From an uncultured Chlamydiae bacterium (lineage in GTDB: Bacteria > Chlamydiota > Chlamydiia > Chlamydiales > Parachlamydiaceae): a DNA stretch of 33,846 nt. Both the position numbers and the translations under genes were made by a program. The notes beneath the pieces were generated by a model that saw only the letters and a program-made list of their open reading frames with translations, did not search any database and had not been told where the DNA came from. Shown here piece after piece: positions 8,506 through 26,054 of the stretch; positions within the stretch are counted from its first letter, which is position 1, and every line of letters starts with the position of its first letter. The stretch is from positions 1-33,846 of the forward strand of contig CAWHMU010000023.1 of the NCBI GenBank assembly GCA_963830365.1. The letters run 5' to 3'.

Positions 8506-10293
8506 TTAACTCCCGATTTTAACGACTTCTTGTTCTAGGGTGGCTGAAAGTGACTTCCAATAGTTGGTTTTCAAGGCTTTGCTTATGCGTCGGGCATCCC
8601 GCTTTAGATATCCCTTGATAAAGGTTTTATCAGCATCCGATAATGGTGATTTTCTATCCCACACCACCCAGTGTAAATGTTTCCAATGTTTTAGCAGTTT
8701 CTGGTCGCCATCTGCCAAGGCATTAATGGCGCTTGCTTCGGCCTGTTCCATCAGCGTCCATAAAGGGGAGGGGTCGGTAGGTTCCAGTTCATTGGAGGGA
8801 CTGCGTACGAAGCGATAAATATCGGCTAATGATTTGCCTAAAGAGGCGAATTTCTTGACTACCAGTGCGAGGGCGCGTGCATTCTTGGCCATTTGAGGGC
8901 CTAATTTGGCTTTGGAAACCGTCTTTTGTATCTGTGTTGGATTCAGTTGGCTGATAAGCTCGATAATTTCAGGACAAAAAGGCTCATTGGCACGTTGATG
9001 TTTATAAAGACCGTTCAAATTCCATAGTTTGTATGGCAAGATGGCATCGCAATCAATGGAAACCAGGTGGGGTTTGCCGTCAGTATCGCGGGTGACGAGA
9101 ATATTTTCGGGATGTCGATCTTCATTATACACCAGGATGTCCATCACGCCAATCTTCTGCAGCTCGGCCAGAGGGACTTCATTGAGGATCGGATTCCTTT
9201 CAAATTCATAGGCTGCTTCAGGGATATCGAGTCCGCCTTTTATGGTAGCATTCACTTTCACGCTAGGGTGAAAATTAATCACTGGGCCCGCATTTGGCAC
9301 CCAAGCCTGAAGGTAGCCTTCTTTGGTTTGCTGTCTTGGCGGGGAATGTGAAGCTTCGGCCTCCACATCAACGAAAAGGGAACTGGTCATGTTGGCCTTT
9401 CCGCCGGCTGGCAGAAGATTGCCGAAATCGAGCAGTTTGGCCAAATGCTGCCTCGCTTGCGTTTTTCCCTGTTCAAAGCTGCTCATTTTATGAAAATAAA
9501 TATCGTCAGCCGCGGCTGTTTGTTTCCGTTTGGCGGGGTCGGGATTTTGCGGTCCATTAGGCCGTTCATCTTCCGGCTTAAAAATAGCTAAGGGGGTGTC
9601 GAACTGGTCTTTGATTACATACAGACCGCTTGTCGTATCCCGTATAGGTTCCAGCCTCCCGCCATGTGCAAGGGCCTGGGCAACCTTTGCCTTCAGTGCC
9701 AGCGATTCTGTCTCAACGGCCCCGTTTTGCAAAGTCATCTGTGGCTCAATAGTTTCAGGAGTCAATGTGGCTGTATGATGCGCGGAAAAATCAATACCGG
9801 TTGATGGCAGGGGTGGCTGCGACATAATTGACGGATTTTCAGCTGCCGTGAAGATATTGAAAGTTATATTTAATGCCGGATTGCTTCGTCTGTCATTTTC
9901 TCTCTGCAGTGTTGAAGGGGTATTTGTTACATTTCCAATAAATTGCGTGGTGCCAAAGATGGCTCCGGATAGGGCCAGACGGGTAATGGCCTTATGCTTT
10001 TCACCCTTAAGGACGCAGCCGACACCCCATAACAGACATGACAGGGCCGAGCCCATGCTTGCAATGGAGAATCCATCCCACCGGCCGCTAGCCTCCGAGC
10101 TCGTGGCGACGGCATACCCGCCGATGGCCACATTGGCGGCGATGGCCAGCCGGGCGATATTGTCAAGACTGAATAGGTTAATAATTTTTTGCGTGGTGGC
10201 CGAAACAAGGCTGGGTTTGGCTCCATAGGGTGTGTTAAGGCCCACCGCCGGTGCCGGTTGCTGTCTTGTCTTAACATGTGAAGATATTGTCAT
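8506..10293 (-). CDS. Membrane-anchored phosphatidylinositol 3/4-kinase-like protein (type II PI4K-like), candidate effector
   Basis: Motifs SGLYVI...AIFKPEDE, GYLQAWV, DILVYNEDRHPENILV and LVSIDCD, with a hydrophobic N-terminal module. Confidence 0.75.
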   Translation of the reverse strand: MTISSHVKTRQQPAPAVGLNTPYGAKPSLVSATTQKIINLFSLDNIARLAIAANVAIGGYAVATSSEASGRWDGFSIASMGSALSCLLWGVGCVLKGEKHKAITRLALSGAIFGTTQFIGNVTNTPSTLQRENDRRSNPALNITFNIFTAAENPSIMSQPPLPSTGIDFSAHHTATLTPETIEPQMTLQNGAVETESLALKAKVAQALAHGGRLEPIRDTTSGLYVIKDQFDTPLAIFKPEDERPNGPQNPDPAKRKQTAAADDIYFHKMSSFEQGKTQARQHLAKLLDFGNLLPAGGKANMTSSLFVDVEAEASHSPPRQQTKEGYLQAWVPNAGPVINFHPSVKVNATIKGGLDIPEAAYEFERNPILNEVPLAELQKIGVMDILVYNEDRHPENILVTRDTDGKPHLVSIDCDAILPYKLWNLNGLYKHQRANEPFCPEIIELISQLNPTQIQKTVSKAKLGPQMAKNARALALVVKKFASLGKSLADIYRFVRSPSNELEPTDPSPLWTLMEQAEASAINALADGDQKLLKHWKHLHWVVWDRKSPLSDADKTFIKGYLKRDARRISKALKTNYWKSLSATLEQEVVKIGS

Positions 10294-10361
10294 TTGCCCG
10301 CCTCATAATGAATGTTCATTGATGGTTTCATTAGTGCATGCTCTTAATCGCGCGGAGTAAA

Positions 10362-11963
10362 TTAGCGCACGGTTTGATCGATCATAATTTTCAACTTGTC
10401 TTTCCGCAATGCGCCGGGCGGCTTGCCATTTGCCTTATCAGCACAGTGCCAGCCCCAGGTCGGTACGCCTGCTGTTTGCCCCATCCAATCGCCAGGACGC
10501 CATATCCCTTCTTTCGGGTCATTATAACTGATTTTTTCCTCTTTCCAGCCGTTCTGTTTGCGAACGAAGCATCCCTCTCTGGAAAATGTGTTCAAAGCTA
10601 ATTCAGTAGTGCCATAAGTGTCGCGAGGTTTTACGACTGTCATGACGCGATCCAGTAAGGAGCTGTCTTCCCTGATCAAACGGGCCAAGCCTTCTTGCTC
10701 ATGCAGCACGTCCTGATTGATGCACGTTCCTAGTGTGCGGCAGTGGTCTTTATAAGTCGCATAGTCGTTGCGTTTTTCCCAAAGCTTCTCGATGAGTTTC
10801 CGGCTGGCTTCATCTTTCCTAACAAAAAAGAGACCGGTGTTGACCGAGTCGTACTCCTTTCCTGTCCATGAAATGACATCTCTAGCGACGATCACACTGG
10901 TATCTTCCCCCCTGCGGAGGATGTCGATGGCTGCAAAGGGGTCGACTTTCATATTGGTGACGGGCATATCATCATCAGCCAGTACGTACCAATCTTCTAT
11001 TTTAGATTGCGCGGCTGGTTTATTCAACCATTCACGCAAAACGGCTACTTTATTCCAATAAGGCACGCAGTCTTTCGTTGAATGAATGCTATCAGAAGTT
11101 GTCGCACACTGTCCTTTCAATAAATTTTCAGAGACGACGCGATGTGTCAAACCCCAGCGCTCGGCATATTCCTTATGGTTGTCATCGACCAGCTTGGCCA
11201 GGGCCTGACGTTCCGGATTGTTTTCTGCGATGTAGGTTGATCCAAAGACAATGCGGCGTCCATGTTTCACCTTACCAGCCGGCACTTTGTTATTCTTTAG
11301 TGGGGGGGTGCGAGGGGGATCGGTTTTTGTTTTCTCGTCCGTGGGGATATCGTTTGGCCAAAAGCGCTGAAATATGTTTTTCGATTGAAAGTCACTTAAT
11401 TTTGCTTTTGCAGCAGCGAGTTTAGAGGTGGTATCAGCGAATTTAGCTTTGAGCCTGGCGTTTTTAGATGCGAGCCTAGTATTTCGATAATGAAGATTAA
11501 CATTTTCAGATCGAAGCTGAGCATTTTGCGATAGGCATACGGATGCATTGTGTCTTTGGTTCTTGTGGGTGGACATGACTTGTTGGGAGATGCCGGCAAT
11601 GGCTGCACCAAGTAGCATGCATTTGCCAGCTTTTGCTCTTTGACCTTTTAAGGCCGCGCCCATACCCATTAAACCGCAGGCTAAAGCGCTGCCATAAGCT
11701 GCAATGGCAAGCCCATCTAATTTGGCACCTAAGTCTGAACCTTTAAAAGCTACGGAAGCTCCTAAGGCAACACTTGCGGCAATAGAAATCTGGCCAATCT
11801 TGTCTAAGGTGATTTGGGTGCGGATAACCGATACAGTATTGCGGAGATAAGAAACACATCTACCAAAAAGGCCCTCAGAAGCAGGCGTGGTTGCCATTTT
11901 TATGCCGTCTAAAGCAGATGGTGGCTGACTAGGGGGGTGGTCGTTTTTAAGTTGTAAACGCAT
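10362..11963 (-). CDS. Membrane-anchored glycosyltransferase (GT34, GMA12/MNN10-like) with a coiled coil, candidate effector
   Basis: Motifs NHKEYAERWG, YWNKV, ADDDMPVTN (DxD), VNTGLFFVR and HEQEGL. Heptad-like stretch NAQLRSENVNL...AKAKL; hydrophobic N-terminal module. Confidence 0.75.
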   Translation of the reverse strand: MRLQLKNDHPPSQPPSALDGIKMATTPASEGLFGRCVSYLRNTVSVIRTQITLDKIGQISIAASVALGASVAFKGSDLGAKLDGLAIAAYGSALACGLMGMGAALKGQRAKAGKCMLLGAAIAGISQQVMSTHKNQRHNASVCLSQNAQLRSENVNLHYRNTRLASKNARLKAKFADTTSKLAAAKAKLSDFQSKNIFQRFWPNDIPTDEKTKTDPPRTPPLKNNKVPAGKVKHGRRIVFGSTYIAENNPERQALAKLVDDNHKEYAERWGLTHRVVSENLLKGQCATTSDSIHSTKDCVPYWNKVAVLREWLNKPAAQSKIEDWYVLADDDMPVTNMKVDPFAAIDILRRGEDTSVIVARDVISWTGKEYDSVNTGLFFVRKDEASRKLIEKLWEKRNDYATYKDHCRTLGTCINQDVLHEQEGLARLIREDSSLLDRVMTVVKPRDTYGTTELALNTFSREGCFVRKQNGWKEEKISYNDPKEGIWRPGDWMGQTAGVPTWGWHCADKANGKPPGALRKDKLKIMIDQTVR

Positions 11964-12100: not shown

Positions 12101-12598
12101 GGGTCATCACACAAATGAGTGGTTGACAGAGATGACTACTCAAGAATTTATGACATGAAAGGTCTTTGCGGGGTGGGGTCAGGCTTGTGATTTGTGATTT
12201 GAAAGTCCTAAATACATTAGAAAGCCCGACTCCTTTCAAATCGCAAATCACAAGCCTGACCTCAATCCGTTCAGCCAAAGCCTACATTATGAGTTTTTGA
12301 GGTTCATCCGGTTTTATAGAACCCACCTAGAAAAGGATGCATAGAAATGGGGAAATGTAGGTAACACATCGGAGCAAAAATAACAGGATATTAGGATGGA
12401 CAGGATGAAAGATTTAAACTTTAGTTTGCCAACTTTGCGATTTACGTAGGTCTTGGGTGATCATCCTATTTTTCATATCCTGACCATCGTAATATCCTGT
12501 TATTTTTGCTTGCTCTTTTCTCTTTATAAAACTTGCAAAACCGGAAGAACCGTTTTTGAGATGTTAGCTCTGTCAACCACTCATTTGTGTGATGACCC
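12101..12598. mobile_element. MITE (outer element) with 31-bp TIRs and an 8-bp target-site duplication
   Basis: TIR GGGTCATCACACAAATGAGTGGTTGACAGAG (12101-12131) is inverted at 12568-12598. GGATTTTT is duplicated at 12093-12100 and 12599-12606. Confidence 0.9.
12301..12551. mobile_element. MITE (inner, nested) with 15-bp TIRs and an 8-bp target-site duplication
   Basis: Ends GGTTCATCCGGTTTT and AAAACCGGAAGAACC. GTTTTTGA is duplicated at 12293-12300 and 12552-12559. Confidence 0.88.
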
Positions 12599-19678: not shown

Positions 19679-21121
19679 ATGACTGGTTCATTAGGTCCAA
19701 AAAATCCAAATGCAGAGCGACAAGTATCAGAGCATCCAGCAATTTTAACCACTACAACAACGACAACTACGACCGGCAGAAAATTAGCGGAAATAAAACC
19801 AACGAGATTTTTCTCGCCTGGTGTAAGCTTTTTTAAAAATATTGCCTATCAGATTAGCAAATTCTTCAATGGATTATTTAGAACAGAGTCGCATGCAGAC
19901 TCGAAATATGACCGTAAGTTTATTAATGAAAAAATTACACTTTTGAATGACCTTGTAAAAAAAATTAACAGGGGTGAAACGGTAGATTCAAAGACATTGA
20001 TCGCGATCGAAAAAGAAACATGCGATTTCCAAACGATGCCGGAAACCAACCTGCAAGAGCTAAGTGCCTTCAAGCAGCAAGATATACGAAAGATTCATGA
20101 TAAAGTTGCTGAACTGCTAAAGCTAGCCTCTTCTCATCCAGCATCGGATGAATGTAATGAGGGTGTTCCTGACACAACGTATAAAGACGGATTACCCCCA
20201 CCCCCGGCATCTTCGATTCCGCTAGCCAGCGGACCACTCCCTACTAAGCCAGGAGAAGTTGCTGGCAGCAGGCTTAATGCTCTTGAGGCGCTGAAAGCCG
20301 AAATTACCAGTTTCCAATCAGAAGCACCCCAAAAACCAAAAAATCGAGGAGAAAATAGAGCGGCGGATGACGCCTGGGACAAGCATATCGCTCAGCACAA
20401 AGATCTGCACAAAAAAATTGAAGAGATCCTATTTGAAGGCAAAGGTAAGATAGAACAACTAAAGGGAGATGTTAAGCATTATCTTCCAGCGTTGGGGGCC
20501 GAAAAATATCTTGAATTGATCGAACAGCAAATAAGTGCGCTGGCAGCTAAGCCAAGTCCAAAAGTACTGGTCAGTCCCAGTGAAGAAATAAAACAATCCA
20601 CCCCAGCCACTGCACAACAATCAACACAAGCAACAGCTCAACCCGTCTGGGACCCAAACGTAACTTACAGATATGTGCCTGATAAACCAGCATCGGAAAA
20701 CGGCATACCACCTCAAGTGCCGGCAGTCTCCGCAGCCACAGACAGCGCACAAGCAGGCGAAGGTGTGCAAACGCCGTCTACTGCCGAGCTGGCTAAATTA
20801 AGAAGCGAAGTTGAAACGCAACAACAGTTAGCCAGAAATATCAAAAGAGATGAGGAAGTTAGAAAGCAACTCGATAAATTGATAGATGCCGCTGCGGAAT
20901 ATACAAAAGATAAAACAAAGTTTCCTAAGGATCTCAGCGAGCATTGGGCTGAAGTCAAAGAGGTGTTTGCCGAAACGAAGGAGCAAATTTTAACCGAAGA
21001 AGACATTAAAGCTCAGGTGAATGCCATCCTCGATGTGGTAAAAGGCGATGAAGAGGGCGTTGAAACATTGCCATCCCAACTTCAGGTTTATATAAAAAAT
21101 ATAGTCGATCTTTTGCGTTAA
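19679..21121 (+). CDS. Hypothetical protein, low-complexity and coiled-coil, effector-like
   Basis: RBS GGAGG; 480-aa ORF with a T9 run, Pro-rich patches and charged helical regions; A-rich codon usage; no recognisable domain. Confidence 0.75.
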   Translation: MTGSLGPKNPNAERQVSEHPAILTTTTTTTTTGRKLAEIKPTRFFSPGVSFFKNIAYQISKFFNGLFRTESHADSKYDRKFINEKITLLNDLVKKINRGETVDSKTLIAIEKETCDFQTMPETNLQELSAFKQQDIRKIHDKVAELLKLASSHPASDECNEGVPDTTYKDGLPPPPASSIPLASGPLPTKPGEVAGSRLNALEALKAEITSFQSEAPQKPKNRGENRAADDAWDKHIAQHKDLHKKIEEILFEGKGKIEQLKGDVKHYLPALGAEKYLELIEQQISALAAKPSPKVLVSPSEEIKQSTPATAQQSTQATAQPVWDPNVTYRYVPDKPASENGIPPQVPAVSAATDSAQAGEGVQTPSTAELAKLRSEVETQQQLARNIKRDEEVRKQLDKLIDAAAEYTKDKTKFPKDLSEHWAEVKEVFAETKEQILTEEDIKAQVNAILDVVKGDEEGVETLPSQLQVYIKNIVDLLR

Positions 21122-24162: not shown

Positions 24163-24925
24163 TGCTAAGTCCGGAGCGTATGCGGAGGACGTTTGCTAAT
24201 AGCCCACCGTGACTGAGCGATTAGCGAAGGAACGGTGGGGACGGCCCAAAGTTTCATCGAGCCCGGAGCGGAAGCGAAGGGCGATTGATTTCATGCAGAT
24301 CACTCTTGCATCCAAGTCGTGCCCCATTGACGATTCAATAGTTCAATTTCATCATCGAAGGATTTTAATTTATGATGCTCCTTTTGATTTTCAATATATC
24401 TTCTAATTTGTTCTACATGAGATTTTGAACTAGAGAATCCTCCGTACCCTTCTTGCCAAGAAAAACTTCCAAATCCCTCTTTTTTAATCCATGAAGTACT
24501 GTATGACTTCACTTCTTTCACCAACGTGCTCAAGGCTATAGCAGGATGAAGATTTAATAGTATATGTATATGATTATCGGTTCCATTAATTTGTAAAACA
24601 GGGGATTTGCTTTCTCTAGAAATCCCACACATATATTGATGCAAGCGAGTTTCAATTTCCATCGGGATTAAAGAGGATCGATCTTTCGTTGCAAAAATTA
24701 TATGAAGATAATTCTGAACACAACTATGAGCCATATCCTATCCACGTAAAGAATTCGCTAATGTATCAACAGCTCAAATTTCGGTCCATTAATATCGAAT
24801 CAATCGCCCTTCGCTTTCGCTCCGGGCTCGATAAAATTTTGCTCTATTCCCACCGTTCCTTCGCTAATTGCTCATTCACGGTGGGCTATTAGCAAACGTC
24901 CTCCGCATGTGCTCCGGACTTAGCA
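24163..24925. mobile_element. HUH transposase gene bracketed by 128-bp inverted repeats (24163-24290 and 24798-24925)
   Basis: TGCTAAGTCCGGAGC...GAAGGGCGATTGATT recurs inverted as AATCAATCGCCCTTC...GCTCCGGACTTAGCA. Confidence 0.88.
24300..24734 (-). CDS. tnpA: IS200/IS605-like Y1 (HUH) transposase, RAYT-like
   Basis: Motifs HIIFATKDR, HUH NHIHILL, WQEGYGGFS and catalytic Tyr in RYIENQKEHH. No tnpB is present. Confidence 0.93.
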   Translation of the reverse strand: MAHSCVQNYLHIIFATKDRSSLIPMEIETRLHQYMCGISRESKSPVLQINGTDNHIHILLNLHPAIALSTLVKEVKSYSTSWIKKEGFGSFSWQEGYGGFSSSKSHVEQIRRYIENQKEHHKLKSFDDEIELLNRQWGTTWMQE

Positions 24926-25384: not shown

Positions 25385-25538
25385 GGTTAAAACCTCTGCA
25401 AACAAGCGCAGACTGAGGTCTACGCTACAAGCGCGGGGCTATCAAGAAATTTTAATCAAAAGCTCTCTGCAATCTTTATAAAATCTTTACTTCTTTGGCT
25501 TATAGTTGGCAGAAATGCACAACCTTAAGGAGAAAAAG

Positions 25539-26054
25539 ATGTCAGAAACAAGAACTCGGGTTTCCGGGGATTATATAAAACCGGCCACCTGTCCAATCAA
25601 TCCACAGCCAAGCTGGAGCACGACGACGCGTACGCGCGTATCGGACGATTATGTAAAGCCCAGCACCTGCGCGCCAATCTACACGCAACCGGGATGCGCA
25701 ACGACGACGCGTACGCGCGTATCAGGCGATTATGTAAAGCCAGCAGCCAGTTCATTTTCGGGCAGATCATATTATCACACCCCATGGTGGGGCTGGAGCC
25801 GGCCGGTGGTGACGCCTAGTTATGATCCGGTGGTTGTTAACGCCGGCCATAAAACCTTAGCCGATGTTGTGGCAAGCGTTATCATTGTCGGTGCCGTCAC
25901 GGCCCTGGCCATCGCCGTCTTAGGCATCGCGTCTTCAAATACAGGACCAATTCCATCATATGTACCGTCTTATGTGCGTTGCCATATCGAAGAGGTGTGC
26001 CACTATATAGGGTACGGAATGAAAGAGTGTCACGAGGAAGAAGTTTGCAGCTAG
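25539..26054 (+). CDS. Hypothetical membrane protein with three TRTRVSxDY[IV]KP repeats
   Basis: RBS AAGGAG; repeats spaced 26-27 aa apart; hydrophobic segment VVASVIIVGAVTALAIAVLGIA; Cys/His/Glu-rich tail. Confidence 0.75.
   Translation: MSETRTRVSGDYIKPATCPINPQPSWSTTTRTRVSDDYVKPSTCAPIYTQPGCATTTRTRVSGDYVKPAASSFSGRSYYHTPWWGWSRPVVTPSYDPVVVNAGHKTLADVVASVIIVGAVTALAIAVLGIASSNTGPIPSYVPSYVRCHIEEVCHYIGYGMKECHEEEVCS

Follow-up and report, generated by a model that had tools for sequence, protein, structure and literature searches.

A stretch of 33,846 nucleotides (the window: contig CAWHMU010000023.1 of assembly GCA_963830365.1, from an uncultured chlamydia of the family Parachlamydiaceae) was analysed around two adjacent genes on the minus strand. 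Their products, P0002 (upstream gene) and P0001 (downstream gene), share a hydrophobic block, here termed the anchor, which is joined in P0002 to a glycosyltransferase resembling family GT34 and in P0001 to a kinase with the fold of the type II phosphatidylinositol (PI) 4-kinases (PI4K-II). The layout of the pair is given in Table 1.

The gene pair and its shared anchor

The two anchor blocks (P0001 42-117 against P0002 52-127) aligned without gaps with 32 identities over 76 residues, whereas shuffled blocks (n = 5000) gave a mean of 7.7 identities and a maximum of 18. Likewise, the local alignment score of 149 compares with 30.7 ± 5.8, and at most 70, for shuffles. BLASTP comparison of P0001 with P0002 returned an E value of 6e-16 (41 of 134 positions identical) and other stretches fell below significance, so the C-terminal parts of the two proteins can be regarded as unrelated. 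An earlier sequence-only reading of this DNA had described co-oriented genes 68 bp apart with an ungapped 76-residue block at this identity, which proved exact, and unrelated C-terminal parts, which was upheld. Given that a Shine-Dalgarno-like stretch precedes both starts and that no terminator-like site was found in the spacer, co-transcription of the two genes is plausible. Promoter-like sites occurred at chance level (7 observed against 6.5), and the G+C content at third codon positions was 0.50 and 0.48 for the pair, against a genome median of 0.57.

Table 1. Features of the gene pair, in window coordinates
Feature	Position	Strand	Remarks
P0002 gene, upstream	10362..11963	minus	Open reading frame (ORF) of 533 residues; Shine-Dalgarno-like AAGGA 5 nt before ATG
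P0002 layout	10362..11963	minus	Low-complexity N-terminus, anchor, coiled-coil-like stalk, GT34-like glycosyltransferase
P0002 anchor block, residues 52-127	11583..11810	minus	Three hydrophobic segments rich in Gly/Ala; loop 1 neutral to acidic, loop 2 basic
P0002 stalk, residues 128-233	11265..11582	minus	Coiled-coil-like (by eye), then Pro/Lys-rich
P0002 GT-A/GT34-like domain, residues 234-532	10368..11264	minus	D330-D331-D332 metal motif; cysteines 286, 299, 408, 414, 465, 507
Intergenic spacer, 68 bp	10294..10361	minus	Shine-Dalgarno-like GAGG before kinase start; without terminator-like site
P0001 gene, downstream	8506..10293	minus	ORF of 595 residues
P0001 layout	8506..10293	minus	Low-complexity N-terminus, anchor, Ser/Thr/Pro linker, PI4K-II-fold kinase
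P0001 anchor block, residues 42-117	9943..10170	minus	Alignment to P0002 block
P0001 kinase domain, residues 197-593	8515..9705	minus	K239, D392, N397, D414 kept; changed PI-pocket positions R244, N246, H268, S271, E391, A417

No Pfam or NCBIfam model matched the anchor over its curated cut-off and the Atlas gave no usable match; this blank is no proof of novelty, and it agrees so far with the earlier statement that the block is not a recognised named domain. Profiles of two and of 26 rows found no copy beyond these two among the 33,676 ORFs of the window's own genome (G000; 2.73 Mb, 82% complete). Of 73 genomes of the family, four have the anchor. Glycosyltransferase genes carry two of the five copies in G019 and ankyrin genes the other three; G074 has the anchor on a PRTase-CE protein; and in G020 anchor, transferase and kinase lie in one protein of 923 residues (P0005).

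Searched with a profile of the anchor at E ≤ 0.001, a set of 1.84 billion representatives returned 26 matches; the representatives carry no taxa, so a chlamydial origin cannot be claimed for all of the matches. One of these, P0025, was a repeat artefact and was dropped, which leaves 25 true carriers. The cargo is a GT34-like transferase in eight, a transferase plus kinase in one and a kinase in one; the remainder carry ankyrin (three), PRTase-CE (two, one under the cut-off), an alpha/beta hydrolase (one), a carbon-nitrogen hydrolase-like domain (one, under the cut-off), no Pfam family (five) or a short coil only (three). In the 25 carriers the block precedes six or more types of cargo (GT34-like, kinase, ankyrin, PRTase-CE and two types of hydrolase), so the idea of a common anchor with swappable cargo holds. 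It does so more broadly than was visible to the sequence-only reading, which had suggested both the profile search and a list of C-terminal partners.

Among the cargoes without a Pfam family, P0024, P0032, P0036 and P0026 were inspected by eye: two carry His/Cys motifs recalling caspase-like peptidases and are mutually dissimilar by BLASTP, one has a protein-kinase-like motif and one an HExxH-like motif. In G019, the N-terminal region of the second anchor-transferase gene contains a frame break (L009:10550-10810) near a C-rich run, which is either real or an assembly error.

A recurrently linked kinase and transferase

The sample comprised 401 genomes of the phylum, of which 400 were scored for the kinase (G101 unscored). 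A transferase profile matched 24 of the 401, 18 of them above 170 bits, and a kinase profile matched 84 of the 400, 13 of them above 100 bits; matches above these values are termed close. A close transferase was present in 12 of the 13 genomes with a close kinase but in 6 of the 387 others. In seven of the 12, kinase and transferase are fused (G359, G406, G223, G202 with two such genes, G228, G255 and G182). P0005 of G020 has the reverse order, anchor-transferase-kinase; the genes are adjacent in G000 and G308 and unlinked in G347 and G362. Further adjacent cases are G019, where the genes are divergent neighbours, and locus L094 (kinase, kinase, transferase). Linked pairs occur in five families, and the flanking genes are not common to G000, G019 and G020. 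Among the 73 genomes of the window's family, three have a close kinase, each together with a transferase, which occurs in 4 of the 73. The gene trees of the two enzymes have three clades in common, one of which crosses family labels. The kinase and the transferase are thus a recurrently fused or linked pair and not two independent cargoes, a pairing that the sequence-only reading had missed in treating them as separate.

In the thirteenth genome, G185, the kinase is fused to a phosphodiester glycosidase (PF09992; L114:4461-7658). The same fusion was observed at L113:6887-9472 (the second kinase of G019) and at L053:12697-15003 (a degenerate kinase in G202), and more distant examples, recognised by overlapping matches in one frame, lie at L131:3296-4903 (G411) and L132:3368-5386 (G333). 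The kinases of the two distant fusions have canonical-looking motifs, and a hydrophobic N-terminus was not seen in them. Overall, PF09992 was present in 91 of 401 chlamydial genomes and 8 of 14 controls, and was not found in G000. Four kinase-transferase fusions (L051:3706-7674, L052:5025-8801, L057:4766-8626 and L053:8647-12507) have ~500 residues of helical repeats at their end; this region contains a Cys-x-x-Cys-x-Trp-Pro-like unit and is without a Pfam family. A metagenome scan gave 11 loci, three close (36-48%) and eight distant (23-27%).

Folds, active sites and membrane topology

P0001 matched PF00454 (PI3_PI4_kinase) with an E value of 9.6e-9 and 35.9 bits, against a cut-off of 27.1. 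For PF05637 (GT34), P0002 scored 22.7 bits (E 9.6e-5), slightly below the cut-off of 23, and its close homologues P0003 (23.2) and P0005 (26.3) scored over it. The structure modelled was that of a natural kinase-transferase fusion from G182, with an alignment of 38 rows (predicted local distance difference test, pLDDT, 92.9; predicted template modelling score, pTM, 0.67). Its kinase part was best matched by PI4KIIalpha (Z 23.2, root mean square deviation 3.3, 267 aligned), with weaker matches to Fam20 (Z 12.6), CtkA (12.3) and HipA-type kinases (11.5 or less); Fam20 is accordingly not the closest fold. The transferase part was matched by domain 1 of A064R from PBCV-1 (2p6w; Z 17.8, deviation 3.1, 203 aligned) and by XXT1 (6bsu; Z 17.0, deviation 3.4, 223 aligned), the next transferase reaching Z 13.3. 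Foldseek agreed on the two folds. At the level of fold, and by way of a homologue, both enzyme classes named in the sequence-only reading were therefore confirmed.

The catalytic residues of the kinase are kept (K239 in 15, D392 in 14, N397 in 15 and D414 in 15 of 16 rows), and the PI4KII-specific insertion after the ATP lysine has equal length in P0001. In human PI4KII, simulation and mutagenesis assign E157, Y159, R181, L184, T307, D308 and L349 to the PI pocket (PMC3974213). The equivalent residues of P0001 are R244, N246, H268, S271, E391, D392 and A417, the last position being placed by offset from D346, and only D308 is retained (1 of 7). Across the 16 rows, E157 is replaced by Arg in 13 and T307 by Glu in 15, and L349 is never Leu. 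Neither the CCPCC palmitoylation motif nor the membrane-inserting residues were found in P0001, the aligned stretch being polar and cysteine-free.

The nearest Atlas clusters of the kinase are plant PF00454, type II PI4K-like proteins (score 0.96), and several plant type II PI4Ks reportedly phosphorylate proteins and lack lipid kinase activity (PMC3741686, PMC3823935). Given the changed pocket and these plant protein kinases, the fold does not by itself fix the substrate of the kinase. Of the lipid kinase originally proposed, the PI4K-II fold and catalytic residues stand; a Golgi-like role in making phosphatidylinositol 4-phosphate (PI4P) is weakened by the pocket, the missing CCPCC motif and the plant-type neighbours. 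No relatives of P0001 were found in plasmids, and the kinase alignment, run against 7996 candidates in a word-based protein search, matched none; this search was insensitive, as relatives are known.

In the transferase, the DxD-type residues D330, D331 and D332 are present in 27, 26 and 29 of 29 rows. Three cysteine pairs are kept in 28, 28 and 23 of the 29 rows, and from this conservation the six cysteines probably form disulfides. Gln496 of P0002 presumably occupies the site of the C-terminal metal-binding His of GT34. The top matches in a viral library were GT34-labelled, and no relatives were found in viral contigs and phages. Related genome loci (n = 20) comprised 14 from chlamydiae, five from uncultured bacteria and one from Verrucomicrobia. 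G000 itself has three full-length genes for ATP/ADP translocases (TLC) and a FHIPEP export-gate gene, and it likely belongs to an environmental chlamydia. A064R domain 1 transfers rhamnose onto xylose, and its donor had first been mis-assigned from structure (PMC9614988); for this reason, no sugar donor is predicted for P0002. Tandem transferase-transferase proteins, which occur in one family (L062:6099-8474, L063:7580-10576, L064:5623-8202 and L066:5128-7881), often have a changed DxD in the first copy. This suggests either that the copies carry out distinct transfers or that one of them is dead.

Over 26 rows, the anchor has three hydrophobic segments (mean Kyte-Doolittle hydropathy, KD, 1.52, 1.49 and 1.48), and the two-helix hairpin of the sequence-only reading was not borne out as such. 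Helices 1 and 2 with their loop span 18 + 10 + 22 residues (KD about 1.5, by hydropathy only), and the loop falls within the limit of <30 residues that defines a hairpin in chlamydial inclusion membrane (Inc) proteins. Of the 26 rows, 23 have a net negative loop 1 and none a net positive one; loop 2 has a net positive charge in 24 and a negative one in none. Given the positive-inside rule, by which basic loops are cytosolic, loop 2 would be cytosolic. A helix 3 spanning the membrane would then place the cargo on the far, non-cytosolic side; a helix 3 on the membrane surface would leave helices 1 and 2 as an Inc-like hairpin, with the cargo cytosolic. The single-sequence fold of P0005 failed (pLDDT 38.4), so the anchor is without a usable model, and a predicted anchor-anchor complex scored 0.01, the partner fold being uncertain.

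The N-terminal content of Ser, Thr, Pro, Asn and Gln was at or above the 90th percentile of this genome in 18 of the 25 carriers examined (P0001 96th, P0002 93rd), a crude type III-signal-like trait of composition and not a functional test. A 'GR' motif in several N-termini was considered as a secretion signal and rejected, being not enriched genome-wide (28, 25 and 30 ORFs of 1457 in three windows). Judged by eye, anchor-less homologues begin with a signal-peptide-like stretch (G182, G308, G202) or with a single basic-flanked helix (G019, G185, L094). If all forms share one compartment, lumen or periplasm would be the best fit.

Two further observations concern the carriers. P0035 consists of anchor, cysteine-rich coil and a C-terminal hydrophobic helix with basic residues behind it (by eye), a layout that fits a coil on the non-cytosolic side. 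N-glycosylation sequons downstream of the anchor (P0002 and 25 others) number 34 against 57 ± 7 in local shuffles, where the genome ratio is 1.02; this depletion comes mostly from nine related transferase rows (9 against 25) and is weak in the remainder (25 against 32).

Elsewhere in the window, the flanking genes are of housekeeping type (cysteine desulfurase-like; a CBS-domain pair, the latter by eye). Upstream of the pair, at 12101-12598, lie inverted repeats nested in one another (arm lengths 46, 37 and 34 nt; complementarity 89-94%), which are possibly miniature mobile elements. Transposase-like ORFs at 181-1310 and 24300-24734 appear to be IS3-like and IS200-like. Three further orphan ORFs (19679-21121, 2031-2816 and 25506-26054), each of low complexity at the N-terminus and without a Pfam match over the cut-off, are candidates for secreted proteins.

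Competing explanations and known systems

The explanation tentatively preferred is an exported two-enzyme kit, likely lumen-facing, that glycosylates and phosphorylates one acceptor. Here, both the GT34-fold transferase and the PI4K-II-fold kinase would be fixed by the shared block to one face of the vacuole membrane, likely the non-cytosolic one. Export by type III secretion is predicted from N-terminal composition and the presence of the FHIPEP gene in G000, and three membrane passes with a cytosolic basic second loop would turn both enzymes towards the lumen of the vacuole. The predicted division of labour is that the transferase attaches a sugar to an acceptor and the kinase phosphorylates the same glycan or glycolipid, at the expense of host nucleoside diphosphate (NDP)-sugar and ATP. 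The common acceptor would be a glycan or a glycosylated inositol lipid rather than plain PI. An exported membrane anchor is highly probable, and the two enzymes likely belong to one pathway; a lumenal orientation of the enzyme domains is slightly favoured, and a sugar or glycolipid acceptor is an evenly balanced proposition. By analogy, the lumenal location has a precedent in Chlamydia trachomatis, in which type III-secreted glycogen enzymes occur in the vacuole lumen and UDP-glucose is imported there (PMC4829429). A bolder form is doubtful: in environmental chlamydiae, a mobile Golgi-like phosphoglycan kit of PI4K-II-fold sugar or glycolipid kinase and GT34, sometimes with phosphodiester glycosidase, would be delivered to the lumen by interchangeable routes (three-helix anchor, single signal anchor or signal peptide). 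The anchor would then represent an inclusion-membrane module of a new class, with its cargo directed to the lumen and not the cytosol.

Several observations weigh against the preferred explanation. The modelled homologue is 37% and 49% identical to the two enzyme domains encoded in the window; the limits of 100 bits (kinase) and 170 bits (transferase) were set post hoc, at score gaps; and the Fisher p value of 8e-18 for co-occurrence is overstated, given that related genomes are not independent. A close kinase is absent from 6 of the 18 close-transferase genomes, and eight of nine transferase-bearing anchor matches have no kinase in the same chain. The correlation of kinase and transferase distances falls from r 0.63 (13 pairs) to 0.00 (9 pairs) after thinning of one tight clade, so co-evolution is not supported beyond linkage. 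As regards location, helix 3, at 15 residues (KD 0.99 in P0001), is short and may lie on the membrane surface with the cargo cytosolic, and ankyrin and PRTase cargoes are better suited to the cytosol. Four of the six transferase cysteines could bind metal instead, and the cysteine enrichment of the stalks (43 of 2317 residues, 1.9% against 1.4%, p 0.04) is marginal.

A cytosolic arrangement would make the proteins Inc-like effectors, with a two-helix hairpin and helix 3 on the surface, the kinase producing a phosphoinositide, PI4P or a related one, and the transferase acting separately or on that lipid. This is somewhat unlikely, given that one of seven pocket residues is kept and that the charge is reversed at E157, mutation of which abolishes human activity (PMC3974213). 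The 10-residue loop between helices 1 and 2 agrees with the Inc hairpin definition, but this loop is acidic, whereas known Inc hairpin loops are without charged residues (PMC3048545). PI4KII remains clearly the best fold match, with an equally long specific insertion; the cytosol is rich in ATP and NDP-sugars; the N-termini are low-complexity; and secreted bacterial PI kinases are known in Risk1, LegA, LepB and OpiA (PMC11077975). Conserved cysteines and signal-peptide homologues nevertheless disagree with cytosolic enzymes, and repeated fusion is left unexplained unless both act together. Of the Inc-like character first proposed, then, the low-complexity N-terminus and the two helices with a short loop survive, and the third helix, acidic loop 1, six cysteines and signal-peptide homologues speak against the remainder.

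The charge bias would also suit ordinary N-in, C-out topology, that is, Sec-inserted three-pass inner-membrane or signal-peptide proteins whose periplasmic domains build or decorate the bacterium's own phosphorylated surface glycan or glycolipid. The cysteine pairs are compatible with the periplasm, homologues have signal-peptide-like starts and PF09992 proteins are common in bacteria. Moreover, the ATPase and F protein of type II secretion were not found in the 82%-complete G000 (they are present in the other four genomes checked), which counts for an envelope location and against the exported kit. Such a location is unlikely in view of the patchy distribution of the anchor within the family, the lack of common neighbours in G000, G019 and G020 with no sugar-pathway genes nearby, the eukaryote-like cargoes (ankyrins), the long low-complexity N-termini and the fact that NDP-sugar enzymes are unusual in the periplasm. 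The fusion would also be accounted for by coupled protein-modifying effectors, a protein kinase of the kind seen in plant type II PI4K-gamma and a transferase that glycosylates the same host protein or complex. This is improbable: XXT1 acts on glucan, protein-modifying toxin transferases are far lower in fold score (LtpM Z 9.0, YGT Z 8.9) and the phosphodiester glycosidase partner indicates sugar-phosphate chemistry. A064R domain 1, a close solved transferase, likewise acts on a sugar acceptor (PMC9614988), whereas the changed PI pocket, the plant proteins nearest in the Atlas and the activity reported for plant type II PI4Ks (PMC3741686, PMC3823935) favour a protein substrate for the kinase.

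Modular vacuole effectors, the PI4K-II fold and GT34 are already known kinds; the coupling of kinase and transferase, with a rebuilt kinase pocket, is more surprising than the modular anchor. Chlamydial vacuole proteins are usually viewed as cytosol-facing hairpin scaffolds that recruit host enzymes. An alignable anchor with many enzymes offers a handle for effector discovery in uncultured chlamydiae, and the repeated fusion makes a common substrate a testable prediction. Should the kinase act on a sugar or glycolipid, this would be a new activity for the fold, in a bacterium building Golgi-type phosphorylated glycans inside its host; should it make a phosphoinositide with a rebuilt pocket, it would still be a chlamydia-encoded lipid kinase, of which the literature searched has no description. 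That literature (few subscription papers and no supplements; tables of genome papers may list the proteins) also held no description of GT34 in Chlamydiae or of a chlamydial PI kinase with a glycosyltransferase, and PI kinases of Legionella and Rickettsia are described without a chlamydial case in the available parts of two sources (PMC9758233, PMC11077975).

Compared with known systems, the anchor proteins share with chlamydial Inc proteins a low-complexity N-terminus, two helices with a short loop, a frequent coiled-coil stalk and tandem gene clusters, and differ in the third hydrophobic helix, the charged first loop, an anchor alignable across unrelated cargoes and the catalytic nature of the cargo. 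With type II PI 4-kinases (human PI4KIIalpha/beta; plant PI4K-gamma/UbDK), P0001 has in common the fold, the ATP lysine, the catalytic D/N/D and the equal-length insertion; unlike them, it has no CCPCC, no hydrophobic face on the insertion helix, six of seven pocket residues changed, a separate N-terminal anchor and a glycosyltransferase partner. Secreted bacterial PI kinases (Legionella LepB and LegA, Francisella OpiA, Rickettsia Risk1/Risk2) also combine a PF00454-type kinase with an intracellular bacterium and a likely site of action at the vacuole, as proposed here, and have no transferase partner described in the part of the source available (PMC11077975). Neither these kinases nor MavQ were among the fold matches listed for the kinase model, which does not exclude likeness to LepB, OpiA and MavQ. 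The GT34 enzymes A064R domain 1 and plant XXT1 have the GT-A fold, DxD-type motif and anchor-stalk-enzyme layout also seen in P0002, which differs from them in its 14-18% identity, six conserved cysteines and Pfam score slightly below cut-off. The kinase is not a Fam20 member and in this respect the system differs from the Fam20 pairs. In its proposed function, it would resemble the kinase-transferase pairs of Golgi glycan synthesis, such as Fam20B with GalT-II and POMK upstream of LARGE, in which an atypical kinase phosphorylates a sugar in a lumenal glycosylation pathway.

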